A stretch of DNA of 24,175 nt from a virus (lineage: Duplodnaviria; Caudoviricetes), in the IMG/VR virus record IMGVR_UViG_3300013120_000407, positions 1 through 24,175 of that record. One strand, 5' to 3'. The stretch's first letter is position 1, and the number at the start of each line of letters is the position of its first letter. The position numbers and the translations under genes are program-made. Of this stretch, positions 2,803 through 24,175 are shown one piece after another. A model generated the notes under the pieces. The model worked only from the letters and a program-made list of their open reading frames with translations. It was not told where the DNA came from and ran no database searches.

Positions 2803-3168
2803 ATGCGAGATCGGTTATTGGTTCTGGCCCTGGGCCTGCTGGCCCTGGGGTGTGTGTCTGCCACCGACGACGACGACAGCAGCGGAACAGGAGATGTCAG
2901 CTGGTCCGGCAACAACGGTGCCCAATACGAGCTGCAAACACTCCACCTCGATTCAGGCGAATCAGGGGACGTGTGCGATTTGGTGGCCTGGCAAGTGTGG
3001 CAATGCGTCCGCGATGACAACGGATGGCACGAAGCCTGCAACGATGTCACTGCGGAGTTTTCCCTCTGTGATGGTTGCCTGTGCAACAAACCACCCAACT
3101 GGGATGACTTTGGAGCTCTCGAGGCTGGGCCCACCGGGCTGACCATCGTGACCTGGCATCCCATCTAG
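2803..3168 (+). CDS. Cys-rich lipoprotein on the opposite strand (moron-like)
   Basis: RBS GGAGG 5 nt upstream; MRDRLLVLALGLLALG-C signal peptide with lipobox; acidic linker TDDDDSSG; six further Cys. The only convincing plus-strand gene. Confidence 0.8.
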   Translation: MRDRLLVLALGLLALGCVSATDDDDSSGTGDVSWSGNNGAQYELQTLHLDSGESGDVCDLVAWQVWQCVRDDNGWHEACNDVTAEFSLCDGCLCNKPPNWDDFGALEAGPTGLTIVTWHPI

Positions 3169-11445: not shown

Positions 11446-14400
11446 TCAGGTCTTGTAAGAAACCACGTAGTCCTTGGCTCCATCCGGTGCCGCGGTCGGG
11501 GTGAACGCCCCATCCGCGGACAGGGTGGCCCCAGCGTCCCGGCCGCCCGCGCTGGTCTCGTATGCCTCGAGCAAGGTCGGGGACTTGCTGCCCACGACCA
11601 CGCCCATGGCGATCCCGCACTGGACATCCATGGTTCCCGCGGAGTGGGTGCCCAGGTTGCGCACCCGACGAATGAGCTGGAACGGAATGGTTCCCTGTAC
11701 CGTGGAGCCCGCCACCGGGGTGATGGTGTCGGTCGCGTCATCGCCCGCCATGGTCAGCCCGGTGACCTCGATGTCTCCGCCGTCCCAGTCCGGACCAGCG
11801 GACGCAGCCACCTGGGCCACGCGCGGAACGTCCGGCTGCGTGAGGTTGCCCCAGGTGGTTTCGTCGAAATCTGCAGCCTTCTGGACCAGGATGTTGGTCC
11901 CAGCCGCGGCCGGGTTTGTGAACGTGTCGATTCGCACGTCCTCGAGATCATCCACCGTGGTGGACCAGGAGACGACCACCCAGTTGGAACCGTCGTAGAC
12001 AACCTGGACGTAGTCCGTGACCTCGGCCAGGGAGATGTCACGGCCGTTGGGACACACAATGTTGCCCGTGCCGTGCTTGACCACCACGGTGCGCCCGGAG
12101 TTTTCGGCACGCAGCCAGATGACCTCCTCCGCGGTTCCGCCGTTGATGGTGTCCAGGTCGTCCGACGCGGCGTCACCCTCGGTGTCCACCTTGTGCGCGG
12201 CCTGGGTCGCGGTGATCGCACCCGTGCTGATCGTCAGCTCGGTGGCCGCATCGAAGATCAGCTCGGGCAGCGTGTCACGGGCCAGGGTGCTGGCCGCGAC
12301 AATGATCACGTTGGTTCCGTCTCCCACGCCAATGACGTAGTCCGTGACCTCGGCCAGGGAGATGTCACGGGAGTTCGGGCAATAGATGTTGCCCGTGCCG
12401 TGCTTGACCACCACGGTGCGCGCGGCATTCTCCGGATAGAAGATCACGAGCTCCCCGGCAACCACTCCGTTGATGGTGTCCAGGTCGTCCGACGCAGCGT
12501 CACCCTCGGTGTCCACCGAGTGGATTCCCTGGGTCGCAGTGATCGCACCCGTGCTGATCGTCAGCTCCGTGGCCGCGTCGAACACCAGATCCGGGTGGGT
12601 GTCTGCGGCCAGCGTGCCCGCAGCCAGTACGATGGCGTTGGAGCCATCGCCCAGGACCATGACTCCGTCCGTGACCTCGGCCAGCGTAATGTCACGGCCG
12701 TTGGGGCACAGGATGTTGCCCGTGCCATGCTTGACCACCACGTCTCGGCCGGCATTCTCGGCGGTCAGCCAAACCAGCTCGTCCGCCCCCAGGCCATTGA
12801 TGGTGTCCAGGTCATCGGTCCCCGCATCCGCCTCCGTGTCGATGGTATGCCGGGCCTGGGTCACTGTGATCTCACCCGTGGCGATCGTCAGCTCCGTGGC
12901 CGCCTGGAACCGCAGATCACTGTGCGGGGTGCTGACGTCCAGGGAGGACGCAATCACCCGCCAGCCGGTCCCCTCGTAGGCCACCAGGACAAAGTCCGTC
13001 AGGGTGTCCAGGATGATGTCATCGCCATCCGGACACGTGATGTTGCCGGTCCCGTGCTTGACCACCACGTTGTGCGTGGCATCCGCCAGGCGGAGCAACA
13101 CGAGCTCGTCCGCGGTCCCGCCATTGATGGTGTCCAGGTCATCCGACGCAGCCGCGGCCTCGGTGTCCACGGCGTGGGAACCGCCGGTCACTGTGATCGC
13201 ACCCGTGGCGATCGTCAGGGACGATCCCGCATAGGTCAGGAACTTGGTGGTGGGCCGCTGGGCGGCGGTCCGCCAGGCCACGACCGTCCAGTTGGAACCG
13301 TCGTAGTACAGCTGGACGAAGTCCGAAACCTCGGCCAGCGTGATGTCCTGGGCCTCCGGGCACAGGATGTTGCCGGTCCCGTGCTTGACCACCACGTCCC
13401 GGCCGGCGTTCTCGGCCCGCAGCCAGATGACCTCCTCTGCGGTCCCACCGCTGACGGTGTCCAGGTCATCGGACCCGGCGTCACCCTCGGTGTCCACCGT
13501 GTGCGCGGCCTGGGTCACGGTGATCGCGCCCGTGCTGATCGTCAACTCGGTGGCCGCATCAAAGATCAGATCCGGATGCGTGTCCGCAGCCAGGGTATTG
13601 GATGCGATGACTGCCCAGTTGGAACCGTCGTAGTACAGCTGGACATAGTCCGTGACCTCGGCCAGGGAGATGTCACGGCCGTTGGGGCACAGGATGTTGC
13701 CCGTGCCATGCTTGACCACCACGGTCCGCGCGGCGTTGTTGGGGCGCAGCCAGATGACCTCCTCTGCGGTCCCACCGTTGATGGTGTCCAGGTCGTCCGA
13801 CGCGGCGTCACCCTCGGTGTCCACCGTGTGGGCAAACTGGGTCACAGTGATCGCACCCGTGGCGATCGTCAGCTCGGATGCTGCATCAAAAATCAGCTCG
13901 GGCAGGGTGTCCCGGGACAGGGTGGACTCCGCCACGACGATGACGTTGGTCCCGTTCCCGATACACATAACATAGTCCGTGACCTCGGCCAGGGAGATGT
14001 CACGAGCGTTTGGGCACAGGATGTTGCCCGTGCCGTGCTTGAACACGACGGTGCGGGCCGCGTTGTTCGGATAGAAGAAACAAACCTCACCCGCGGCCAA
14101 ACCGTTGATGGTGTCCAGGTCGTCCGACGCGGCGTCACCCTCGGTATCGATGTTGTGCAACGACTGGGTGGCGGTGATTGCCCCGGTCGCGATGGTCAGC
14201 TCGGTGGCAGCCGGCAGAATCAAATCTTGATTGTCCAGCCGCCAGGTGGTCCCGTTGTCCACGGTTTTGTACACCAGGGCGTTGGTGCCGGTGGCACCAT
14301 CACGGAGATAGACCATCTCATTGACGTCATATCCGTAGTTTCCAGAGGGAGCACCCGCCCCCGCGATGATCATCGGGACATCCGCGTCCCGCTGAGTCGC

Positions 14401-14469
14401 AGAGGTTCGGACGCCCAGACCCGTAGCCGCGATCGGCTTCCGGCGTCGAATAGCGAACTGGCTTGCCAT
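11446..14469 (-). CDS. Virion appendage / decoration protein with seven tandem 109-aa domains (1007 aa)
   Basis: RBS GGAGGA. N-terminal GAGAPS..YLRDG..VYKT..W module, seven repeats at aa 83-845, unique C-terminal domain with QPDVPR. Lies between neck genes and tail tube. Confidence 0.8.
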   Translation of the reverse strand: MASQFAIRRRKPIAATGLGVRTSATQRDADVPMIIAGAGAPSGNYGYDVNEMVYLRDGATGTNALVYKTVDNGTTWRLDNQDLILPAATELTIATGAITATQSLHNIDTEGDAASDDLDTINGLAAGEVCFFYPNNAARTVVFKHGTGNILCPNARDISLAEVTDYVMCIGNGTNVIVVAESTLSRDTLPELIFDAASELTIATGAITVTQFAHTVDTEGDAASDDLDTINGGTAEEVIWLRPNNAARTVVVKHGTGNILCPNGRDISLAEVTDYVQLYYDGSNWAVIASNTLAADTHPDLIFDAATELTISTGAITVTQAAHTVDTEGDAGSDDLDTVSGGTAEEVIWLRAENAGRDVVVKHGTGNILCPEAQDITLAEVSDFVQLYYDGSNWTVVAWRTAAQRPTTKFLTYAGSSLTIATGAITVTGGSHAVDTEAAAASDDLDTINGGTADELVLLRLADATHNVVVKHGTGNITCPDGDDIILDTLTDFVLVAYEGTGWRVIASSLDVSTPHSDLRFQAATELTIATGEITVTQARHTIDTEADAGTDDLDTINGLGADELVWLTAENAGRDVVVKHGTGNILCPNGRDITLAEVTDGVMVLGDGSNAIVLAAGTLAADTHPDLVFDAATELTISTGAITATQGIHSVDTEGDAASDDLDTINGVVAGELVIFYPENAARTVVVKHGTGNIYCPNSRDISLAEVTDYVIGVGDGTNVIIVAASTLARDTLPELIFDAATELTISTGAITATQAAHKVDTEGDAASDDLDTINGGTAEEVIWLRAENSGRTVVVKHGTGNIVCPNGRDISLAEVTDYVQVVYDGSNWVVVSWSTTVDDLEDVRIDTFTNPAAAGTNILVQKAADFDETTWGNLTQPDVPRVAQVAASAGPDWDGGDIEVTGLTMAGDDATDTITPVAGSTVQGTIPFQLIRRVRNLGTHSAGTMDVQCGIAMGVVVGSKSPTLLEAYETSAGGRDAGATLSADGAFTPTAAPDGAKDYVVSYKT
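11935..14223 (-). repeat. Seven imperfect tandem 327-bp coding repeats
   Basis: gtccaggtcgtccgacgc recurs at 12151 and 12478 (327 apart); unit starts checked at 14223, 13896 and 12261. Consensus ELTIxTGAITxTQxxHxxDTExxAxxDDLDTINGxxxxExxxxxxxxxxxxVVVKHGTGNIxCP. Confidence 0.95.
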
Positions 14470-14501
14470 CGGTATTCCTCCACCGCCCCTTGGACGGTCG
14501 T

Positions 14502-14945
14502 TTAGCTCAGGGCGTAATGGTGCAGCACCCTGAACGCGATTGTGCCAACGAAGTAAACGTGGTCCTCAGACAGGAGCTCCCGCCCCAGGACCTCTTCAAA
14601 TACGATATGTGTGTTCGTGGGCGGAGACCCCTTGGCCGCAGCCACCAGGGACAGCTCCCCGCCCAAGGCCAGGTCATAGTCCGCCCGCATTCGATTCCCC
14701 CGGATGCGCCACAGGAACCGGGCCAGGACCTGGGTCCGCACGTAGGCCCCCACGGACAGCCGCTGGCGGTCCGTCTGCTGGACCAGCTGAGTACGACCCA
14801 GGCCCACGGCAAAGGACTTGTGGACGTATGTCTTGGGATCGAACGCGATCAGGTCGAACGGCCAACGGGATTCCCGAAAGCCGGTCACGGCGTCCAAGGC
14901 GGTGGCCACCCCCTGGCGGATGGTCGCGGGGGCAACTGCGGTCAT
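14502..14945 (-). CDS. Putative tail terminator / neck protein (147 aa)
   Basis: ATG 14945 overlaps the upstream TGA (ORF track uses 14963). N-terminal helix IRQGVATALDAV then beta strands ending in FRVLH, the layout of tail terminators; position. Confidence 0.55.
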   Translation of the reverse strand: MTAVAPATIRQGVATALDAVTGFRESRWPFDLIAFDPKTYVHKSFAVGLGRTQLVQQTDRQRLSVGAYVRTQVLARFLWRIRGNRMRADYDLALGGELSLVAAAKGSPPTNTHIVFEEVLGRELLSEDHVYFVGTIAFRVLHHYALS

Positions 14946-15691
14946 CGGTAACCCCTCGAGCAAAGCCAGGTGGTGGGACGAGCTCCCACCCGATGGTCCG
15001 GGCTGTCCGGGGTCCCGTCGTCGTCGCTGTCATACAGGAAGTTGCAACGGTTCCAAGCCTGTTCGTACCGCCTGCGGTACTCCGTGGCCTTGGCCGCAAA
15101 CGCTTCATACTGACGCGTGGCCAGGTCATCGAAGATGATCGCCAAGGTCAGATTCAGCCAGATTCCACGCAGCGCACTGGGCGATACGATCAGGTTCGGG
15201 CGGTTTCCCTGTTCGATCAGCCGGAGCTGGACTTCCACGTCCGCTTCATCGATGTAGGACTGATAGTCCGTGGCATCGGTCATGGGGTCCGAGCTGTTGG
15301 GGTCCAGCGCGGTTTCCCGGCGGAACAGGTCCAGGTCCGTGATCGATGGGTACAGGCGAGCGGACACCAGGGCCCCATCATTGCGGAACGTGTGGGTCAC
15401 GTCCGACATGACCAGGGCCCATTCCAGGATCCACCCCTCGGACAGGTCCTCCGCGTCCAGCGTTGCGGACGGAACCGTGTACGTGGCAATGGACCCGGTC
15501 ACGGTCACGGCCGCTGGCGACACCACATCATCCCCCACCTGATTGCGGATGGTCACGGTTGACCCCGCCTGCGTGGGGGCCTCGAGCGCACCATCCACGT
15601 ACACGGGACACTGGATGTCACTGTCCCGCCCCTGTTCCAAAAGGTCCGGGAGCTGGTACCGCGCGGAGTATCGGGTGTCCGTGCTACTCAC
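14942..15691 (-). CDS. Head-tail adaptor with extra N-terminal beta domain (249 aa)
   Basis: C-terminal half is helical (YQSYIDEADVEVQLRL...LRGIWLNLTLAIIF...EYRRRYEQAW) like gp15/gp6-type adaptors; GTGA-coupled; position after head genes. Confidence 0.55.
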   Translation of the reverse strand: MSSTDTRYSARYQLPDLLEQGRDSDIQCPVYVDGALEAPTQAGSTVTIRNQVGDDVVSPAAVTVTGSIATYTVPSATLDAEDLSEGWILEWALVMSDVTHTFRNDGALVSARLYPSITDLDLFRRETALDPNSSDPMTDATDYQSYIDEADVEVQLRLIEQGNRPNLIVSPSALRGIWLNLTLAIIFDDLATRQYEAFAAKATEYRRRYEQAWNRCNFLYDSDDDGTPDSPDHRVGARPTTWLCSRGYR

Positions 15692-15972
15692 GAGTGGTAC
15701 TCGTTTCCGACCTGGCGGTCCCGCCAGCGGTCATGGACCCCGCGGGACTTGTGCTTTGCCCATTGCTCCGTGGCTCCGTGCGCCACGCACTTGGCTGCGA
15801 ACGCATCCCGGGATTCCGGGTGGGCCTGCAGGGATGCCACCCTGGCCGGTACGCTGGGCACCCGCGGGCAGTCCGCCTCACAGTACGGGCAAGGGATCGC
15901 GTCCTGGGGTTTCGACGTCAGGGTCTCCACCTCCGCTCCGCAGTTTCCACACCGGTACTCGTAAATCGCCAC
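15688..15972 (-). CDS. FmdB-family zinc-ribbon protein (94 aa)
   Basis: MAIYEYRCGNCGAEVE...CPYCE...RVPS matches the MPxYxYxCxxCG...CPxC signature of the family. Confidence 0.85.
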   Translation of the reverse strand: MAIYEYRCGNCGAEVETLTSKPQDAIPCPYCEADCPRVPSVPARVASLQAHPESRDAFAAKCVAHGATEQWAKHKSRGVHDRWRDRQVGNEYHS

Positions 15973-15975
15973 GGT

Positions 15976-16689
15976 CTAGTCCTTGCCCTTGGACTTGCTG
16001 CCCTTGGGCCGCCCGGGCTTCTTCTTCTTCTTCCCGGGCTGGGCTGCGTTTTCCATCTCCTCCAGCCTTGCCTGGGCCCGCTCCGCCCGCTTGGGGTTGT
16101 TGGACCCGGCTGCAGCCTCGAGCCGTTGCCGCTGGGAATCCAGCAGCGCATCCACGATGTCCGGATCGGGGGGAGGGATGTACCCCTCTCGGACGAGGGC
16201 CCGCAGCCAGTCCCGATACCCATCGGTGTCCGACTTGATGATCACCTTTGCCCCGATCTGTTTCGGGGTCTCCCACACGGACATGTGGTGCTTGCCCGTC
16301 CGGTTCTCGCCGGCACGGACCTTGAAAGCCCGCACGTAGCTCGTACGATCGGGCATGGTCAACTTGATGGCATCGTGGGGTATCAGCGTCCGACCCTTGG
16401 CCTTGGCATCCATCTCCGCGATTTTCTTGCTGCCCCCCTCGGCAACGCCATCCACCCCGGGGTCCAGGCGCATGATCCCCAGCTGGGGCAACCACTCGCC
16501 GTCCATGCACGTCCAGCGGGCCTCGTGCCACCAGTAATAGAACGACGCGGCCGGATGCAGGTTTACAAGCTGTTCCCGGACCACGGGCTGGGTCGGCGGG
16601 ATTTCCTCGAACTGGGCGGGACCCGAGGATGCGGGGCTGGCGGCGGTAGCCTGTCCCGTGACCTCGTCCCTTTCGAACGTATGGGCCAT
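15976..16689 (-). CDS. Hypothetical post-capsid protein with Lys-rich AT-hook-like C-terminus (237 aa)
   Basis: Strong RBS GGAGGAGG; GC3-biased codons; C-terminal KKKKKPGRPKGSKSK. Confidence 0.8.
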   Translation of the reverse strand: MAHTFERDEVTGQATAASPASSGPAQFEEIPPTQPVVREQLVNLHPAASFYYWWHEARWTCMDGEWLPQLGIMRLDPGVDGVAEGGSKKIAEMDAKAKGRTLIPHDAIKLTMPDRTSYVRAFKVRAGENRTGKHHMSVWETPKQIGAKVIIKSDTDGYRDWLRALVREGYIPPPDPDIVDALLDSQRQRLEAAAGSNNPKRAERAQARLEEMENAAQPGKKKKKPGRPKGSKSKGKD

Positions 16690-16779
16690 GGTTTCCTCCT
16701 CCTGATTTCGGAAAGGTGGGGGCCCCCGCGGAGGAGGCTGCGGGAGCTCCCCGCGGGGACCGCCTCCCCGACCACGGAC
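16690..16779 (-). promoter_or_regulatory. GC-rich structured intergenic RNA with anti-SD after the capsid gene
   Basis: On the minus strand CCUCCUCC (16730-16737) is the perfect complement of the SD GGAGGAGG (16695-16702) and can alternatively pair with upstream GGAGGC (16762-16767). Confidence 0.5.
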
Positions 16780-17709
16780 CTAGCGGTCCGTGATGATCGA
16801 CACTCCGCGGCCGTCCTCGATCTGGACCACGCCGCAGAAGTAGTTGCCCACGATTTCGTTGTAGGCTCCGGGTTCGTCGTTGTCGAGTCCGACGAAAATG
16901 CTGGTGCCCGCGGGGTACACGCGTTCCCCGATCTGGACGATCTCCGTGGCTGCGAAGTCCGTGTATCCCACGGCCCCGCGTCCGAACATCCCGCCAGCCG
17001 AGTCCGCACCCGCGTTGGCGGTGGGGACCAGGGACGAACCGAAAATCGGAACACCCAGGAACGAGCCCTTGTAGCCCGGGCCCTTGATGTCCAGCATTTC
17101 CTGGGCATCGTCCTTGAACTGCATCGCGCCGGCCTCGGCACGGATGCTGTTCTGCAGGTCGGTGACCTGGACGGGGTACAGGACGCACAGGTACGGACCC
17201 GGGACGGACGCCTGGGTCAGCGTATAGTTCGCGTCCATGTAGTCATCCACCGCCAGGTCCACCGTGGTGGTTCCGACCGTGGCGGTGAAATCATCGGTGA
17301 TCCCCGCGATCATCTCCGTCAGCCGCATGCGCGCGGCCCCTACCATGTCCTGCGCCAGGCGCGGGATGTCCAGGCCAACGGTGTCCGTCAGCTGGGCCAG
17401 ATAGGTCATCTGGCGGCGGAGAGACTGGCGGGCGATCACAACCTGGGGACTCGCGTCCGTCAGGGCGGTAACACCCGTGTCCGCGTCCTCGGCAACGGCG
17501 GCCATGCGGTTGTACCCGTCCAGACCGGCCAAGCCGATCTCGAACGCGGTGCTACCCTGCTTTGCCTTGTTTCCGAGGTAGACGATCGTGGGATCGCCCA
17601 TGAGATCCGCGCGGTCCGCCAGGAGCAACAGCATTTCCTGGTGGAGGGCTGCGGCCAGGCGCAGATCACCCAGCCCCGAGTAGAGAAGTCCATTTGCATT
17701 GACGGCCAT
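16780..17709 (-). CDS. Major capsid protein (309 aa)
   Basis: Follows portal and scaffold; size; CVLYPVQVTDL...GSFLGVPIF and C-terminal GVVQIEDGRGVSI are typical of HK97-fold capsids. Confidence 0.88.
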   Translation of the reverse strand: MAVNANGLLYSGLGDLRLAAALHQEMLLLLADRADLMGDPTIVYLGNKAKQGSTAFEIGLAGLDGYNRMAAVAEDADTGVTALTDASPQVVIARQSLRRQMTYLAQLTDTVGLDIPRLAQDMVGAARMRLTEMIAGITDDFTATVGTTTVDLAVDDYMDANYTLTQASVPGPYLCVLYPVQVTDLQNSIRAEAGAMQFKDDAQEMLDIKGPGYKGSFLGVPIFGSSLVPTANAGADSAGGMFGRGAVGYTDFAATEIVQIGERVYPAGTSIFVGLDNDEPGAYNEIVGNYFCGVVQIEDGRGVSIITDR

Positions 17710-17790
17710 TGAAGGGGCCTCCCGTAGAACAGTGGTTCAGGCTTTCCGCCTTTTCCGCTGTTACGGGTGCGACCCGGGCGGGGATCTAAC
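17710..17790 (-). ncRNA. Candidate cis-regulatory leader RNA of the capsid gene (pseudoknot versus SD-occluding hairpin)
   Basis: CCGCC-CGGG-UCGCA-CCCG-UAACA-GCG-GAAAA-GGCGG versus CCCGUAACAG...CUGUUCUACGGG; pairings identified by eye. Confidence 0.5.
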
Positions 17791-17802
17791 GTGTACGCGA
17801 TC

Positions 17803-17832
17803 AGCCTACACGCGCGTTTGTAGAAATGACAA
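17803..17832 (-). promoter_or_regulatory. Sigma70-like capsid promoter overlapped by a TTGT-N7-ACAA box
   Basis: TTGTCA (17827-17832), 18-nt spacer, TAGGCT (17803-17808); palindromic box ttgtagaaatgacaa at 17818-17832 covers the -35. Confidence 0.6.
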
Positions 17833-18528
17833 CTATTTTCTGATGATCTGGTCCCGCTGGGCTTTGTATTCCTTTGTGGACATCGAAAGGATGGCATCCG
17901 CGGACAACGCGTCCGGGGCGGCCACCACGGGCTGGGCTCCCGCGTTGGGGTTGTGGGACGGCGGGCTGGGTGCTGCGGGTTGCGGCGGGGCCACGGTTCC
18001 CAATGCAGCTGCGGGGGCGGGGGCCGCTGGCGGGGGCGGAGCCGCTGGCGGGGGCGGGGCAACGGCCGGCGCAGGGGCCAGCGGCGGAGCCGCTGGCGGA
18101 ACTCCCACGGGCCCCATGGGAGCGGGGGCAACAGGGGCAGGGCCCGCGGGTTGCTGCGGAGCAAGGTGTGGCTGCAGCGATAGCGGGGCCTGCGTGGGGT
18201 CCGCACGCAACGCAGTCACCCACTCGGCCAGCTCGGGCCGCGCATCCTCCGGGATCCTCGAGTGTTCCCACACCATCAAGTCCACCAGCTGGGGATTGAC
18301 TCCCGCGGCCGTGATGGTCTGGTGTGCGTACAGGGTCCCCTGGGCGGCGGCCAGCTGTTGCTGGGCTGCGGCCAGCTGTTCGGCGGTCTGCTGGCCCTGC
18401 TGGACCTGCTGCTGGGCCGTGGCCAACGCGGTCTCCGCGTCCTGTTTCTGCTGGTTGACCTGGTCAAAGCGGTCCTTGGGTATGACGTTGTCAATCCCCT
18501 GGCTGCAATGTGGACAATTGAATGGCAT
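17833..18528 (-). CDS. Capsid scaffolding protein (231 aa)
   Basis: Between portal and capsid; VIPKDRFDQVN then Gln/Ala coiled coil, Pro/Ala low-complexity linker, terminal helix MSTKEYKAQR. Confidence 0.8.
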   Translation of the reverse strand: MPFNCPHCSQGIDNVIPKDRFDQVNQQKQDAETALATAQQQVQQGQQTAEQLAAAQQQLAAAQGTLYAHQTITAAGVNPQLVDLMVWEHSRIPEDARPELAEWVTALRADPTQAPLSLQPHLAPQQPAGPAPVAPAPMGPVGVPPAAPPLAPAPAVAPPPPAAPPPPAAPAPAAALGTVAPPQPAAPSPPSHNPNAGAQPVVAAPDALSADAILSMSTKEYKAQRDQIIRK

Positions 18529-18540
18529 GCGGCCTCCTCC

Positions 18541-18561
18541 AAAAAGCCCCGATCACGGGGC
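18541..18561 (-). terminator. Intrinsic terminator-like hairpin between portal and scaffold
   Basis: GCCCCG-TGAT-CGGGGC followed by TTTTT, then directly the SD GGAGGAGG. Confidence 0.65.
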
Positions 18562-18571
18562 GGCGGTTTTA

Positions 18572-20011
18572 TTACTGCGGCGGTTCCTGGCCTCGTATCC
18601 GATCCAGGTCCTCCTGGGCCCCCACCTCGTCCACCCCGGGGTTCAGGTACATGTACGCCTGAACGTCCGACATAAGCCGGCGGTCCATGAGCTCGATCGC
18701 GTGCTTTCGCCTCGAGTCCAGCTCCTGTGGCGACAGCGGGATTTCCCGGTAGACCACGGAATAATCCTTTTCCGGATACCGTGTCCCCGTCTCCCTGTTC
18801 AGCAGCATGGCGGACAGGGCCACCAGCTGGGCATCCGAGGGCCCGAACTGCGGCCCGAAGTGACGCTGGGCCGCCCGCTTTCCCTCGTTGGACATGGCGA
18901 TGGCATACCCGCTGCGTGCGGTCCCACCCAGCCGCTGGACGTCAGACTGGGGCAACCCCGCATCCTGACCCAGCCTCGTGGCATAGGATTCCAGGGCCCG
19001 CTGGGTGCCCTCCACATCCCCCGCGGTCTGGAACTGGCTGACAATGGGCTGGGCCTCGGGTTCCGTCCGCGTCAGGTGCAGCAGGACGGCGGGGTCCATG
19101 ACCACCTCGGACCGGCGAGCATCCCCGCTGGTGGGGATGTCCCCGCCCGCCACCATCGCGTCCACCGCATACCGCTGGGGCCAGCTTGCGGACCGTAGCA
19201 TGTGCAACCAGAAGGACCCGCCCGTGGCCAGGTTCAAGGACCCCTCGACAACCTCGATCATCTCGTAGGGGTCCCACAGCCGATCACCCGTGCGGGATGC
19301 GTGATAGACCACATAGGGAAGAACTGGGGCACCATCCTCGTCCCGGTACGGGTATCGGTCTGGGGCCTCCACCAGGTCCGCCAGGAACGTGGAGGACCAG
19401 TCCGCACCCACCTCGTCCCCGGACTCGGCCTCTCGGACCTCGTAGATGGGACGGGCCGGGTCCGAGATGTCCAGGACATCGAAGGTCCACGCGGGTTCCT
19501 TGGTCGCGGGATTGTACCGCATCCGTAGCTCCTGGATACGGACGGGGTCCATGGGGGAGTCCGTGGACGCCCTGGCCTGGATGTAGTCCGGAGCCACGGG
19601 CCTGTACCGCAGCCGCCCGCCCTGGTCCACGTGCGCGCGCACCAGGTACTCCCTGCATCCGATGGCCCAAGCCTGGACCCGGGCCATGGTGGACCACAGC
19701 CCGGACCGTGCTATCTCCTTTACCAGGCCCTTGGTGGCATCCCTGCCCAGCTGGTGGCGGATGTCCGGCTGCGTGGCGTACAGAACCGCCAGCTCCCGGC
19801 AGATGGTCCGGAACGGGTTGGAGGACATGTCCGCAGCACCCCACGCGTCCTTGCGTTGGGTGCCCACGGCCTTGCGGACGCGGGTTTCGATGTCCTCCCG
19901 CCAAGCCCCGTCCAGCATCCTGCGGCGGAGCCTGGTGTGCATCCAACGTTGCGATTCGGCGGGGTCTGAAGGGGTAGGGGGGGAAGTGAGCAAGGCGGAT
20001 GCTGTGGCCAC
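18572..20011 (-). CDS. Portal protein (SPP1 gp6-like, 479 aa)
   Basis: Follows the terminase; size; SSNPFRTICRELAVLY, LPYVVYH, ARSGYAI, DYSVVY...P motifs. Confidence 0.85.
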   Translation of the reverse strand: MATASALLTSPPTPSDPAESQRWMHTRLRRRMLDGAWREDIETRVRKAVGTQRKDAWGAADMSSNPFRTICRELAVLYATQPDIRHQLGRDATKGLVKEIARSGLWSTMARVQAWAIGCREYLVRAHVDQGGRLRYRPVAPDYIQARASTDSPMDPVRIQELRMRYNPATKEPAWTFDVLDISDPARPIYEVREAESGDEVGADWSSTFLADLVEAPDRYPYRDEDGAPVLPYVVYHASRTGDRLWDPYEMIEVVEGSLNLATGGSFWLHMLRSASWPQRYAVDAMVAGGDIPTSGDARRSEVVMDPAVLLHLTRTEPEAQPIVSQFQTAGDVEGTQRALESYATRLGQDAGLPQSDVQRLGGTARSGYAIAMSNEGKRAAQRHFGPQFGPSDAQLVALSAMLLNRETGTRYPEKDYSVVYREIPLSPQELDSRRKHAIELMDRRLMSDVQAYMYLNPGVDEVGAQEDLDRIRGQEPPQ

Positions 20012-20027
20012 GACGACTCCCGGCGAT

Positions 20028-20098
20028 GGTTGTCATTATCACAACCGTGGTACGATTGTGGGTTTCACAATTGTATCTATCACAATCCGCCGTGTCAT
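20028..20098 (-). promoter_or_regulatory. Portal promoter with three TTGT-N7-ACAA operator-like boxes
   Basis: Boxes at 20030-20044, 20056-20070 and 20071-20085; ATGACA (20093-20098), 17-nt spacer, TACAAT (20070-20075) on the minus strand; AT-rich island in a GC-rich genome. Confidence 0.75.
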
Positions 20099-21576
20099 CC
20101 CACACGAACCGTCCGCGGACGAACCACACGCCTGCGGAAGATGAACGGCCGCAAGGCATAGCGGACGGCGTCCAGCTGGTCCTTGTATTCCTCGGCCGGG
20201 CCGCCCTGCCATTTCTGCAAACACTCGATCGTGCGGGTACAGCTGGCGTCCACGTAGAACGCATCCGGGGTGATCATCCGGTCATTCAGCCACCGCACCC
20301 CCGCCCAGACGGATCCCCGCCCCGCACCCGTGCCCCGCTTGGCGGACCTGAACGCGGGCTTGATTCCCCGCCGTCTGCCCAGGGCCTTTTCTATCGCCTC
20401 GGTCAGCATGGCATTTGACTTGCGGGTGATGCGGCCCCTCGCGTCCGTGTACCGCTTGTCACCGTGCGCGTGGTCCAGCTGGTTCCACTGCACGCCCAGG
20501 GTGGACACGGACTCGAGGACCCCGCCCGCGTCCATCTGGATGGTGGTGGCCGCATTGGGGGCATACTCCCGCAAGATGAACACCCGGAGCCCGTGGGCCT
20601 CGGACGCTTCAACCGCCACCAGCACCCCGGCCGTCCGCAGCCGATCCTCCCCGTAATCCACCCCATAGGCCAACTGGACCTCCCCGCGGGGGCCCACGTC
20701 CGAGGACACCAGGTTGGGGACCACGTGCAGGTTCGGGTGGAAGTTTTCGAACACCGCGTCTATCCGGCCGTATTCCCACTCCCCGTGACAGCGGACAGGG
20801 CGGGCCCAGGACAGGGTGTTGGCGATCTCGCGGGCCACCCACGCGGCGTCCATGACCTCGCCGTTTTCCGACAGCAGAGGACGCGCGGACCCCACGGGGA
20901 TGAAATTCGCGGGTTCCATCCGATAGTGCATGTCCTCGACCTGGCCCGCCTCCACGAGCTCCCGCAACCACACCAGGTCCCCGGTGGTGGCCGGGGTCAT
21001 GGTGATGGCCAGCTCCCCGCCCGTCCGCCGCAGCCGCATTTGCAGCTCGCTGAACGTCTCCGCATCCCCGAGGGGTTCGTCTATCCAGATGCGGTGGACC
21101 GTGGCGGACGCCAAGTCCAGGTTATCCTGGCCGATCGTCTTGATTCGGATGATCGACCATCCGCCGGACTTGTGCCGGATTTCGATGGCCTTCTGGACCC
21201 CGGCAAACCCGGTTTTGGGTCGGAACGTCGTATCGGGGGCCAACAGGTGTTTGGGCAGCAGGGCCCACAGCTTGGCCTGGATGGCGATGGACTGGGACCA
21301 CGACTTGCAGACGATCCATTGCTCGGTGGGGACCTGGGGGACATCCCGATAGGGATGGACACCCATGGCATACCAGATGGTGTCCGCGCACCCCGCCCAT
21401 GTCTTGCCAAACTGGTTCCCTGTCCGGAGGAGTTTGAACCTAGCCAGGCATTCGAGAAACGCGCGCTGGGGAGGGGTCCACCGAACGTAGGCCAGCGGGT
21501 TGACAGCTGCCCGATCGGACAGCTCCACCACGGGGCCCAGAAACCCCGTCTCCGCGCTGGATGCAAGCTCGTACAC
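20095..21576 (-). CDS. terL: Terminase large subunit (493 aa)
   Basis: Adenine-binding PPQ, Walker A TGNQFGKT, Walker B IWIDEP, motif C TMTP, RNase H-fold nuclease YGVDYG and DQLDAVRYA. Confidence 0.95.
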   Translation of the reverse strand: MYELASSAETGFLGPVVELSDRAAVNPLAYVRWTPPQRAFLECLARFKLLRTGNQFGKTWAGCADTIWYAMGVHPYRDVPQVPTEQWIVCKSWSQSIAIQAKLWALLPKHLLAPDTTFRPKTGFAGVQKAIEIRHKSGGWSIIRIKTIGQDNLDLASATVHRIWIDEPLGDAETFSELQMRLRRTGGELAITMTPATTGDLVWLRELVEAGQVEDMHYRMEPANFIPVGSARPLLSENGEVMDAAWVAREIANTLSWARPVRCHGEWEYGRIDAVFENFHPNLHVVPNLVSSDVGPRGEVQLAYGVDYGEDRLRTAGVLVAVEASEAHGLRVFILREYAPNAATTIQMDAGGVLESVSTLGVQWNQLDHAHGDKRYTDARGRITRKSNAMLTEAIEKALGRRRGIKPAFRSAKRGTGAGRGSVWAGVRWLNDRMITPDAFYVDASCTRTIECLQKWQGGPAEEYKDQLDAVRYALRPFIFRRRVVRPRTVRVG

Positions 21577-22070
21577 TATTCGGCGGGGACCTGTTCGTCC
21601 GGCTTGTCCACCATGACTGGCTGACCACGCAGCCGGTCCTCACAAGCATCTTGCAGCTGTTCCACCAGGACGTCCGGCAATCCATCCAGCTCCGCCCGGA
21701 ACTTGCCCACCACGTCCCCGTCTGACGTGGCACGGCGGGCCGCCTCCTCCGCTTGCAGCGTCCGCGCTGCAATGCGCTCACGGATGGACTGTTCCTCCCG
21801 CAGGAAGTCCCGGGCAGCCACCCAGGACCCGGCGAGCTCCGCCTTGCGGCCCAGCCGTTTGGCCCGCTCCGCAGCCGCCTCGAGCGGGTCATCCGGGAGG
21901 GGCCGCGGGTCTGGGACATAGGGGGGATCGTCGAGTCCCTTGAGCTGGATCTCCTGGCGATGCAGCTGCGCAAGCGCGGACCAGGACCCAGCCTCCCGGG
22001 CCGCCCGGATGTCTGACCGCAGCTCCTTGATCTTGGACTTGCGGAGTCTCTTCTTTGGGTCCGCTTTCAT
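21576..22070 (-). CDS. Probable terminase small subunit (164 aa)
   Basis: TAGTG-coupled directly upstream of terL; helical; internal duplication AREAGSWSA / AELAGSWVA. Positional call. Confidence 0.6.
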   Translation of the reverse strand: MKADPKKRLRKSKIKELRSDIRAAREAGSWSALAQLHRQEIQLKGLDDPPYVPDPRPLPDDPLEAAAERAKRLGRKAELAGSWVAARDFLREEQSIRERIAARTLQAEEAARRATSDGDVVGKFRAELDGLPDVLVEQLQDACEDRLRGQPVMVDKPDEQVPAE

Positions 22071-22165
22071 CCTAACTCCGTGGATTCTTGGGTTTTTTTT
22101 GTTCGCTCACGCGAAAAATTCGACGGGAAACTAGCACCCGGGGTGATCGGCCCCAGACACACGGG
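22071..22165. other. Candidate packaging initiation (cos/pac) region
   Basis: Only sizeable non-coding gap upstream of the terminase genes; T8 and A5 tracts, CACCC-G-GGGTG dyad and GGGG-N7-CCCC. Confidence 0.35.
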
Positions 22166-22384
22166 TTATGGGCCTTTTTCGGGCAATTTCTTGCCGGTTT
22201 TGGCCTCTTTCATGGCCTTTCGGACGCATCGGATGATATGCCGTGTCCACTCCCCTTCCCTCCCGGGTCTGGTATAACGGGCCTCGGCCAATGACTTGAG
22301 CTCGGTTTCCACAGCTCTGACCTTGGCCTCCGCGTCCAACGCCAGCCGTTCCTCCCGCGCAATCAATTGCGCTTGCATCATCAT
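22166..22384 (-). CDS. Hypothetical basic helical protein (about 72 aa)
   Basis: ATGA-coupled to the upstream gene; coiled-coil-like N-terminus. Confidence 0.65.
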   Translation of the reverse strand: MMMQAQLIAREERLALDAEAKVRAVETELKSLAEARYTRPGREGEWTRHIIRCVRKAMKEAKTGKKLPEKGP

Positions 22385-22875
22385 CGACGACGACGGCGCT
22401 TCTTCGCCGCCTGCCGTTGCTTCTCGATCTTCAACAACCCAGGTCGGAGACGACGCAGCTCATCCAGCATCTTCTGCATCGTCGCCGTCCTCATCGCCCA
22501 CTTCGCGTGGTAGTTCGACACCCACCCCCACTCCGGGTGGCCCTTGGCCTTCGCCCGCCGAATCCCATTCTCCAGCATCTCCTGGTAGTACCCGTGTGCG
22601 ATGTCGTACGGACGCACCACAACGACGCCAGCGACATCCACCCACTCGTCCCCGCCTCCACCATCACCAGAGCCACGAACGCGGTCCTCGAACGTCTGGA
22701 GCTCCACCGGCAGCTTCGACTCCTTCTCCACGGGCGGGTGCTCCAACCCCTCCTCGCGATACCGCCGAAACAGGTACTCCAGCACCTTCCGCTTCAGACC
22801 GTACTCGATCCGAAGCTCCCGCTTCTGCCGCGAGCCCTCGTACCCTTTCCACTCGATTCGGAAGAACGTCTTCAC
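22381..22875 (-). CDS. Putative HTH DNA-binding protein (164 aa)
   Basis: Start re-called at GTG 22875 with GAGGAG upstream. YGLKRKVLEYLFRRYREEGLE resembles the GIS..T...W.RRYREEGL homeodomain-like HTH; Arg/Lys-rich C-terminus. Confidence 0.6.
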   Translation of the reverse strand: MKTFFRIEWKGYEGSRQKRELRIEYGLKRKVLEYLFRRYREEGLEHPPVEKESKLPVELQTFEDRVRGSGDGGGGDEWVDVAGVVVVRPYDIAHGYYQEMLENGIRRAKAKGHPEWGWVSNYHAKWAMRTATMQKMLDELRRLRPGLLKIEKQRQAAKKRRRRR

Positions 22876-23010
22876 CCCTGGCTCTCCTCGTCGTCTTCGT
22901 TGTCCTCGTCCCAGCCAGCCAGCAGCCCCAGCCCCTTGATTCGGTGTCAGGATGCGGCCATCGGCCAGCAGTAAGCCCCTTTGCGTGCCCATTCCATTGA
23001 TGTCATCCAC
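22872..23010 (-). pseudogene. Small (~45-codon) gene with a frame disruption
   Basis: Fills the gap between two genes and ends in a GTGA overlap; the 3' half (LGLLAGWDEDNEDDEESQG*) has high GC3 but is cut from any start by TGA at 22947-22949 or by one extra base. Confidence 0.5.
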
Positions 23011-23317
23011 GATCGTCCTCCCTCCTGAACACCAGCCGCCGCATGTCCTCGAGATGGTATTGCGTGGCCCGCAGCTGCCCCGTGGTGGACACTTCGTCCG
23101 AGGGCCGCAACCCAGCCCGCCACAGGTCATCCAGCAGGACCTGGGCCGCCTCCTGTTCCAGGATGGCGGTGGGCCCCACGGCCGTGCCCTCGTCCACCTC
23201 CTCCGCCTCTATGGCCCTGGACACGGCCCGACGTCTCCCCCTGTCGTCCACGTCCATGACCAGGAGCTCGTATCCAGCGGACCACGGAGCCGTGGTGATG
23301 CGTAGGCATAGGGACAT
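23003..23317 (-). CDS. Hypothetical phage protein (104 aa)
   Basis: Start re-called at ATG 23317 (GGAGGA RBS, 2 nt after the upstream stop); AQVLLDDLWRAGLRPS...HLEDMRRLVF. Confidence 0.75.
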   Translation of the reverse strand: MSLCLRITTAPWSAGYELLVMDVDDRGRRRAVSRAIEAEEVDEGTAVGPTAILEQEAAQVLLDDLWRAGLRPSDEVSTTGQLRATQYHLEDMRRLVFRREDDRG

Positions 23318-23319
23318 GG

Positions 23320-23670
23320 CTAGTCCTCCTCCGCGGCCGTATCCTCGGCCGCCTCCACGCGCGTCCGCGCGTTCTTCTCTCCCTTGGCGTCCGAGGATAC
23401 GGACGCGGCCCATGGTCGCCACTGCCCCGGATCCCCGCTCAGCTCCCGCACCATGGCCTCCAACGCGTCTATCCGGTCGTGGAGCCTGTCCAGCGACTCC
23501 ACGCAGTCCCTGTGGGCATCGGACTCGGCCTGGCGGAGCCTGTGGACCTCGTGGGCTATCACCCACTCCCGCCGGCTCCCGCCGTGCTGGTACAGGTCCA
23601 GGATCGCATCCGCGACAGACATCGGCTCCCTGTCCTGGGCTGCTGGTGGTGCTTTCGTTTCGTTACCCAC
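23320..23670 (-). CDS. Hypothetical coiled-coil protein (116 aa)
   Basis: GTG start with GGAGGG upstream; overlaps the upstream stop; heptad segment LDRLHDRIDALEAMVREL. Confidence 0.7.
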   Translation of the reverse strand: MGNETKAPPAAQDREPMSVADAILDLYQHGGSRREWVIAHEVHRLRQAESDAHRDCVESLDRLHDRIDALEAMVRELSGDPGQWRPWAASVSSDAKGEKNARTRVEAAEDTAAEED

Positions 23671-23950
23671 GTCCTATGCCCTCCACCTCGGCCCACGGCC
23701 GCCAGAACCCCCGCTCTGTATCCTGCACCCACCTATGCCCGTTCGTTTTCCACCACTCCACCGCCTGGCGACCGATACACGGATCGTATCTGTGCGCCCA
23801 GTTTTCCAGCCCCAGGTGGGGGTTATACCGCCCCCAGCCCCTCGCACAGCTCCCCACAGCTCCCTGGACCCGCTCCCACTCCAGACACTCCCCGCAACGC
23901 AGCCCAGGCACGTCCAGGGGGTCCTGGGGGACCAGGGACAGCTGGGTCAT
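23663..23950 (-). CDS. Hypothetical Cys/Trp-rich protein (95 aa)
   Basis: ATGA-coupled; CGEC...C...C possible zinc site. Confidence 0.65.
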   Translation of the reverse strand: MTQLSLVPQDPLDVPGLRCGECLEWERVQGAVGSCARGWGRYNPHLGLENWAHRYDPCIGRQAVEWWKTNGHRWVQDTERGFWRPWAEVEGIGRG

Positions 23951-24174
23951 GCTTTCGCCCTCCGCGCACGACTGCGGGAACCATCACTCCGCCGTTGCGA
24001 ATCCTCCCCTGTGTATGTCCATCCCCTGTCAGTCCACCGCATCCGAGGGATATGTCCGCAATCGCCTTCCATCCATACGAGATCACCGATGCGGGCCTGT
24101 TCGTAGTTCGGCCATGACCAACGATGCACGTGTCCACAATGGGGACAGGTCCAGACATGCTGCCAACGATCCAT
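23947..24174 (-). CDS. Hypothetical zinc-ribbon-like protein (75 aa or longer; may be cut by the window edge)
   Basis: WTCPHCGH...DCGH; its stop overlaps the next ATG. Confidence 0.55.
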   Translation of the reverse strand: MDRWQHVWTCPHCGHVHRWSWPNYEQARIGDLVWMEGDCGHIPRMRWTDRGWTYTGEDSQRRSDGSRSRARRAKA

Positions 24175-24175
24175 C

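Follow-up and report, generated by a model that had tools for sequence, protein, structure and literature searches.

The structural gene block of the phage described here carries four 15-bp boxes of the form TTGT-N7-ACAA, all of which lie on two predicted promoters, those of the portal and capsid genes. The window analyzed, a stretch of 24,175 nucleotides, belongs to G001, a 34,168-bp record that is complete and has terminal repeats. The boxes are very probably binding sites for a regulatory protein, and they are best explained as operators of one dimeric repressor, probably phage encoded, that would hold the virion genes off, a reading to which we assign a probability of roughly 45%.

Three of the boxes occupy the 83-bp gap between the terminase large subunit gene (terL) and the portal gene (positions 20012 to 20094), namely, box 1 (20030 to 20044), box 2 (20056 to 20070), and box 3 (20071 to 20085). 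The preliminary description had listed them as palindromic 15-bp boxes with the pattern TTGT-N5-TCACAA, which all three match with 0 mismatches, with boxes 2 and 3 abutting; however, perfect palindromy in each box is confined to the outer 4 bp of each arm, and TTGT-N7-ACAA is the better notation. It had overlooked box 4 (17818 to 17832), which lies on the -35 element of the capsid promoter and starts directly after the scaffold stop codon, its coordinates adjoining those of the scaffold gene. The arms are fixed and the inner seven bases vary among the boxes, which is unlike a plain duplication, and box 1 differs by one base from a perfect TTGTCA-N3-TGACAA. The triple is far beyond chance expectation in shuffled sequence: among 200,000 shuffles of the gap, none held two or more TTGT-N7-ACAA matches and 210 held one. 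When any 4-bp arm and any spacer of 0 to 12 were allowed, a triple arose in 1 of 20,000 gap shuffles and in 2 of 1,205 real 83-bp windows, one of these two being the terL-portal gap itself. In a scan of TTGT/ACAA spacers from 0 to 19 across the window, spacer 7 gave four matches and the other spacers at most two each. The complete phage contains exactly four TTGT-N7-ACAA sites, all on the two promoters, and the reversed control gave 0.

The genes concerned are all on the minus strand. terL (20095 to 21576) is recognized by phrog_2 (E = 2e-12) and PF03237 (E = 4e-5). The probable portal protein (18572 to 20011) is assigned by gene order only, has no Pfam or PHROGs match, and has 339 homologues, indicating a widespread uncultured family. 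The probable scaffold protein (17833 to 18528) is assigned by gene order, with a PF06810 match below the cutoff (E = 0.0014), and the probable major capsid protein (16780 to 17709) is assigned by gene order and size, with no Pfam or PHROGs match. A terminator-like hairpin between the portal and scaffold genes (18546 to 18561, minus strand) is weak, with 7 such hairpins found in the region against 5.9 expected. The predicted portal promoter, ATGACA-N17-TACAAT (20070 to 20098, minus strand), whose -35 overlaps the terL stop codon, is one of two sigma70-like sites found in positions 14000 to 24175, and the predicted capsid promoter, TTGTCA-N18-TAGGCT (17803 to 17832, minus strand), has a position that is conserved across the family. 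A promoter matrix trained on 20 lineages with this phage left out ranks the capsid promoter first in the whole phage (score, 16.3), the portal promoter second (14.4), and a predicted early promoter (L007:8523), which has no box, third (14.3). The portal-directed promoter proposed earlier is thus upheld as a family-type promoter by an independent matrix, although such a promoter is not unique: a terL-portal promoter scoring at least 9 occurs in 8 of 34 lineages versus 0 of 34 controls, a feature that is recurrent but not the rule. Transcription of the portal gene separately from terL is plausible. An antisense extended -10 candidate in the gap (TGGTACGAT, 20048 to 20056, plus strand) has no properly spaced -35.

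With the portal +1 placed at about 20063, box 3 would cover positions -22 to -8, that is, the spacer and five -10 bases, box 2 about -7 to +8, over the predicted start site, and box 1 about +20 to +34 of the predicted transcript, so that the boxes overlap the promoter as repressor operators would, in agreement with the preliminary description. Because five of the six -10 bases come from box 3, this box is partly promoter sequence. The left half of box 4 is the -35 of the capsid promoter, of which the box covers -36 to -22, and the presence of a box there means that the portal site is not the dedicated, stand-alone switch that had been envisaged.

In relatives, a TTGACA/G-N17-18-TAnnnT promoter stands before the capsid gene and is accompanied by a conserved leader motif. 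A pattern search located this motif in 82 of 92 distinct sequences upstream of capsid genes, with at least two misplaced. In this phage, the motif is a pattern match at 17756 to 17775 (minus strand), 3' of the capsid promoter, and it served as an anchor in the comparisons. Its sequence, GGGTCG-N3-6-CCG-TAA-CAGCG, follows shortly after the predicted capsid +1 (17710 to 17780 of the window, minus strand, and 81 other regions) and folds as a small hairpin within a longer stem in a three-sequence alignment. It has no Rfam match and is possibly a cis-regulatory RNA not described before. A one-mismatch match to the LexA box of the likely host order at 17726 to 17739 coincides with the predicted leader RNA stem, and another match of this kind falls within coding sequence; the match is therefore probably due to chance.

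Temperate phages usually silence their late genes indirectly, by blocking the early genes for an antiterminator or activator. In the arrangement proposed here, a sigma70-type polymerase of the host would transcribe from the portal and capsid promoters, whose activity would be strong in the absence of a guard, and the presence of an integrase implies that such near-consensus structural promoters would have to be silenced. Boxes 2 and 3 are 15 bp apart and thus on roughly opposite faces of the helix, and dimers bound there would mask the -10 together with the start site. Box 1 would contribute a further, downstream block to portal transcription, and occupancy of box 4 would cover the capsid -35. 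The head and tail genes would then be silent in the lysogen or in early infection, independently of terS-terL, which has no box, and loss of the repressor would turn the virion genes on. The half-sites differ between phages, which in our view favors a coevolving phage protein. Against a phage repressor, boxes 3 and 4 consist partly of promoter hexamers, and the same core occurs at nine sites in a host genome, G146. In addition, the lack of a box on the predicted early promoter makes the system unlike a classical immunity repressor.

Besides the tyrosine integrase, the phage encodes an adjacent xis-like ORF, a methyltransferase, and a DUF5131 protein. Pfam and PHROGs detected no helix-turn-helix (HTH) repressor family, including cI/Cro, in 53 ORFs of the phage, which were a selection rather than every possible ORF and of which 10 were rescanned at E ≤ 10. 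A divergent cI/cro-type HTH pair was detected in the distant prophage-like contig L224, showing that the profile scan is able to detect such a pair. The protein encoded at 22381 to 22875, which had been put forward as the possible regulator, gains little from the searches: it has no family match in Pfam, a blank result in the Atlas, a single weak homologue (P0149), also an orphan, and a predicted model that is too poor to be usable (pLDDT, 39). An HTH-like stretch at about residues 17 to 45 of this protein is visible by eye only. A second candidate, a 79-amino-acid ORF (L007:9977), has Atlas leads below 0.9 and a poor predicted model (pLDDT, 53).

Several other features of the phage were recorded. 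A whole-phage Rfam scan gave one match, attributed to chance, a whole-phage tRNA scan found none, and an integrase scan identified neither attP nor the host. Outside the window, positions L007:9822 to 9933 of G001 contain three 9-mers within one mismatch of the DnaA-box consensus, together with a weaker fourth and GACGG repeats, and directly follow a replication initiator-like ORF; this region is likely the phage origin, as judged from these features. Among the head-tail genes, a 1,007-amino-acid protein (11446 to 14469, minus strand) contains eight 109-residue (327-bp) repeats that resemble a phage depolymerase C-terminal domain. The sole clear gene on the opposite strand (2803 to 3168, plus strand) is predicted to encode a small lipoprotein that contains an acidic stretch (DDDDS) and is possibly a moron. 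An FmdB-type zinc ribbon protein is encoded in the head operon (15688 to 15972, minus strand), and its homologues occur in the closest lineage alone among the loci compared. An A/T-tract region before terS (22071 to 22165) resembles a packaging end, and the contigs of relatives often start at the equivalent place.

Single-protein scans found no relative of the portal or capsid protein among 50,697 GenBank phage records and no portal relative in genome contigs. Neither the exact box nor the triple was found in 84 other distinct terL-portal gaps or in the best 15-mers per lineage, so the conservation check proposed for the triple did not bear out this arrangement in relatives. The closest capsid protein, that of L106, shares 83% identity, and since the L106 and L144 portals are identical at 287 of 287 positions, these two loci are very likely one phage. 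L106/L144 has TTGTCA-N3-TGAAAC on the -35 of both its capsid and its portal promoter, with different centers and with all 12 arm bases in common, the best pair in 23 lineages, although 6 of the 12 are the -35 itself; a second box lies 24 bp upstream of the capsid one. None of 506 cross-lineage pairs reached at least 11 of 12, and five reached 10. Pairs within a phage reached 9 to 10 of 12 in 7 lineages, and the 10 of 12 of the present phage is not exceptional because one other lineage and five cross pairs match it. A palindrome on the capsid -35 with a 3-bp spacer and at least 4 of 6 matches occurs in 4 of 24 lineages, this phage included, versus 1 case at nine other spacings, and the box is absent in the other 20 of the 24; a permutation test of the mean match at this 3-bp distance gave a nonsignificant result (P = 0.18). 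In four low-GC relatives the -35 is TTGTCA and has no palindromic partner half-site, which indicates that the box is not forced by the promoter. In distant phages in G106, TGACA-N3-TGTC boxes lie on the -35 of the portal promoter (L206/L255, twice in L206) or the capsid promoter (L224). A viral scan for an L106-type box before the leader motif gave 0 matches, and a paired-box scan of genomes gave about 600 scattered matches and was uninformative.

A survey of 300 sampled genomes from the phylum of L094, a Myxococcota metagenome-assembled genome, yielded portal relatives in 6, one of them weak, compared with 0 of 300 in each of the phyla of L090 and L088, center genomes not counted. One G106 contig carries homologues of the integrase, the xis-like ORF, DUF5131, terL, and the portal together. 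The survey and this contig suggest that the host likely belongs to the order of G106 within the Myxococcota, subject to possible binning errors.

A different host repressor, for example of the TetR type, could bind the boxes and tie virion synthesis to the state of the host, which we consider unlikely. Such a protein would accord with the failure to find a phage repressor among the 53 scanned ORFs, and the same core does occur with a 3-bp spacer in L391, where it separates a divergent TetR gene from a P450 gene, and beside mixed genes at the nine G146 sites; TTGACA-N3-TGTC variants also stand at promoters of the distant phages L206 and L224. However, the number of TTGT-N7-ACAA matches in 8 genomes that contain relatives does not rise above that of the control (34 versus 29), and a G146-like set of sites is absent in 40 relatives of G146, of which 33 have no exact match and two with multiple matches also matched the control. 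The half-sites differ between sister phages, which is also at odds with a shared host protein.

Of similarly low probability, marginally below that of such a different host repressor, is the host regulator NrtR, a Nudix-wHTH protein released by ADP-ribose, through which NAD+ breakdown would switch the virion genes on. The available text of PMC2330246 describes NrtR operators that resemble the boxes in their GT-N7-AC core, which is present in 4 of 4 boxes, in their odd symmetry and tandem sites, and in their location over or just after promoters, and that differ from the flankless boxes at phage structural genes in having AT-rich 21-bp flanks and NAD salvage targets. Of 61 genomes from the likely host order (the host itself being a prediction), 28 contain NrtR_WHD; in 5 genomes, GTGT-N7-ACA sites immediately precede NAPRTase genes that lie close to nrtR; and in G146 a one-mismatch TTGTCA-N3-TGACAA site precedes an operon with pncA-like and nrtR genes. 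With a 15-bp matrix built from 17 host sites, which were picked in 11 loci from 20 neighborhoods, with NAPRTase as the next gene in 5 loci, the boxes rank 1, 2, 4, and 10 among 34,140 phage positions. This likeness ends at the flanks: T is present at flank position -2 in 25 of 34 host half-sites versus 0 of 8 phage half-sites, and the 21-bp scores of the boxes are 2.9 to 6.3 versus at least 11 for 16 of the 17 host sites, which had been preselected for AT-richness; the nine G146 sites were chosen by core alone, and all have the flanks. A 23-bp G146 pattern has 0 phage matches at up to 3 mismatches, 21-bp NrtR footprints would overlap at boxes 2 and 3, the TGAAAC half of the relative (L106/L144) has no AC, and the GT-N7-AC core is also found beside the TetR gene in L391, which means that it is not diagnostic of NrtR. 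It is correspondingly improbable that this is a repressorless temperate phage under host NrtR in which ADP-ribose released on NAD+ breakdown, caused for instance by anti-phage NADases or stress, would signal virion building; the available text of PMC9503650 and PMC13464706 presents NrtR as an ADP-ribose sensor and does not mention phage gene control.

Two palindromes were also noted. G146 contains nine TTGTCA-N3-TGACAA sites within one mismatch versus 1 in the control, and at nine sites (L346 to L354) a 23- to 27-bp palindrome, GTTATTGTCA-N3-TGACAATAAC, lies next to an nrtR operon, thiC, a thioredoxin reductase-like gene, and further genes, a candidate regulon of unusual breadth. Another set of NrtR-like genes (L322, L323, L326, L327, L328, L331, and L345) has a conserved upstream palindrome, GATGCA-N3-TGCATATATG, which is not of the GT-N7-AC type.

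The boxes might instead bind a late-gene activator of the phage, with a logic like that of Ogr or Mor, or a dual regulator, which we regard as rather improbable. They occur at structural promoters only, and L003 and L106 have a box centered at about -53, an activator position, at the same 11-bp distance to the -35. In this phage, however, the elements overlapped by the boxes are the -35, the -10, the start site, and the leader, a geometry typical of a repressor, and near-consensus promoters should not need activation.

That no protein binds at all and the boxes are by-products of promoter hexamers and short local duplications is quite improbable. It is true that the -35 falls within box 4 and TACAA from the -10 within box 3, that boxes 2 and 3 adjoin as a 15-bp duplication would, that most lineages have no boxes, and that a similar tandem lies within a gene of the unrelated phage L182. 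Such an origin is nevertheless hard to reconcile with boxes 1 and 2, which are essentially outside the hexamers, and with the retention of arms around differing centers; the four low-GC relatives show the TTGTCA -35 standing alone, and two separate promoters of the nearest relative share one half-site.

It is highly improbable that the boxes are terminase-binding sites of the cos/pac R type: three sites adjoining terL recall R1 to R3 of lambda cosB, but box 4 is on the capsid promoter, 2.2 kb away, and the contig starts 400 to 599 bp before terL in 69 of 118 related loci (not independent), which suggests that a genome end lies upstream of terS and makes a packaging role unlikely. Equally remote is binding by HexR, of the RpiR family, or LexA, despite a Pseudomonas HexR consensus that is literally TTGT-N7/8-ACAA, with sites around and downstream of +1, in the available text of PMC5902321, and a similar 15-mer in one lexA promoter, since a search of 61 genomes from the likely host order (the order itself a prediction) detected the RpiR HTH in 0, portal relatives are found in 0 of 300 sampled genomes of the L090 phylum, and the LexA box of the host order is TGAAC-N4-GTTCA (at most 2 mismatches in 24 of 30 lexA promoters; 14 of 30 recA regions). 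Delta-proteobacterial HcpR and BirA sites have other spacers in the available text of PMC545781.

TTGT-N7-ACAA within one mismatch is found in 4 of 30 lexA and 1 of 30 recA regions. TTGWSA-N3-TSWCAA, with 73 matches versus 26 in the control across 41 host-order genomes, is not regarded as a regulon because two genomes give 32 of the matches and some matches fall in coding repeats. Besides the LexA box, a GGAC-N7-GTCC dyad is present in 7 of the 30 recA upstream regions (L286 to L315).

Among known systems, P2 Ogr and Mu C act as one phage protein at several late promoters through a dyad site, and their promoters have no good -35, with the sites upstream; in contrast, the promoters of this phage are near consensus and are overlapped by the boxes. 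At lambda OR1 to OR3, several cI/Cro operators lie over a sigma70 promoter, with divergent promoters and flanking repressor genes. The likeness to lambda OR drawn in the preliminary description stands as far as multiplicity goes, since three similar, imperfectly palindromic putative operators lie over a predicted sigma70-type promoter and one of their spacings, 26 bp, is close to that of lambda. The analogy holds only to this extent because no divergent repressor/antirepressor pair or divergent promoter pair lies beside the boxes, which are flanked by terL and the portal gene on one strand, with no HTH in the 53 ORFs; in addition, the control would fall on structural genes, two of the boxes stand end to end at 15 bp, and a second promoter carries a fourth copy. 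The general lambda layout is also given in the available text of PMC9262239, which describes the stoperators of cluster A mycobacteriophages as many asymmetric sites that act on elongation and lie among lytic genes, away from a repressor gene that is hard to find bioinformatically. The boxes resemble stoperators in lying among lytic genes and in the elusiveness of the repressor to bioinformatics, whereas they are four symmetric sites, at promoters only and with none on the predicted early promoter, rather than many asymmetric oriented sites through the genome. The Aca repressors, according to the available text of PMC12658196, are small phage dimers on inverted repeats over the -35 and -10, and Aca11, which controls two promoters, is a precedent for the action of a single phage dimer at more than one of them; in the present phage, by contrast, neither an acr-aca operon nor an Aca-like HTH was seen, and virion genes are the predicted targets. 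The arrangement of the boxes was not found described in the open-access literature searched, and the word "promoter" does not occur in the available text of a myxophage preprint. The phage family seemingly relies on strong host-type promoters for its portal and capsid genes; in some members, these promoters seem to be guarded directly by operators. If the binding protein is found, it would be either a repressor that standard profiles overlook or a host metabolic sensor wired to virion assembly. In comparison with these known systems, the predicted circuit is one of two-promoter operator control and not a lambda-like switch.
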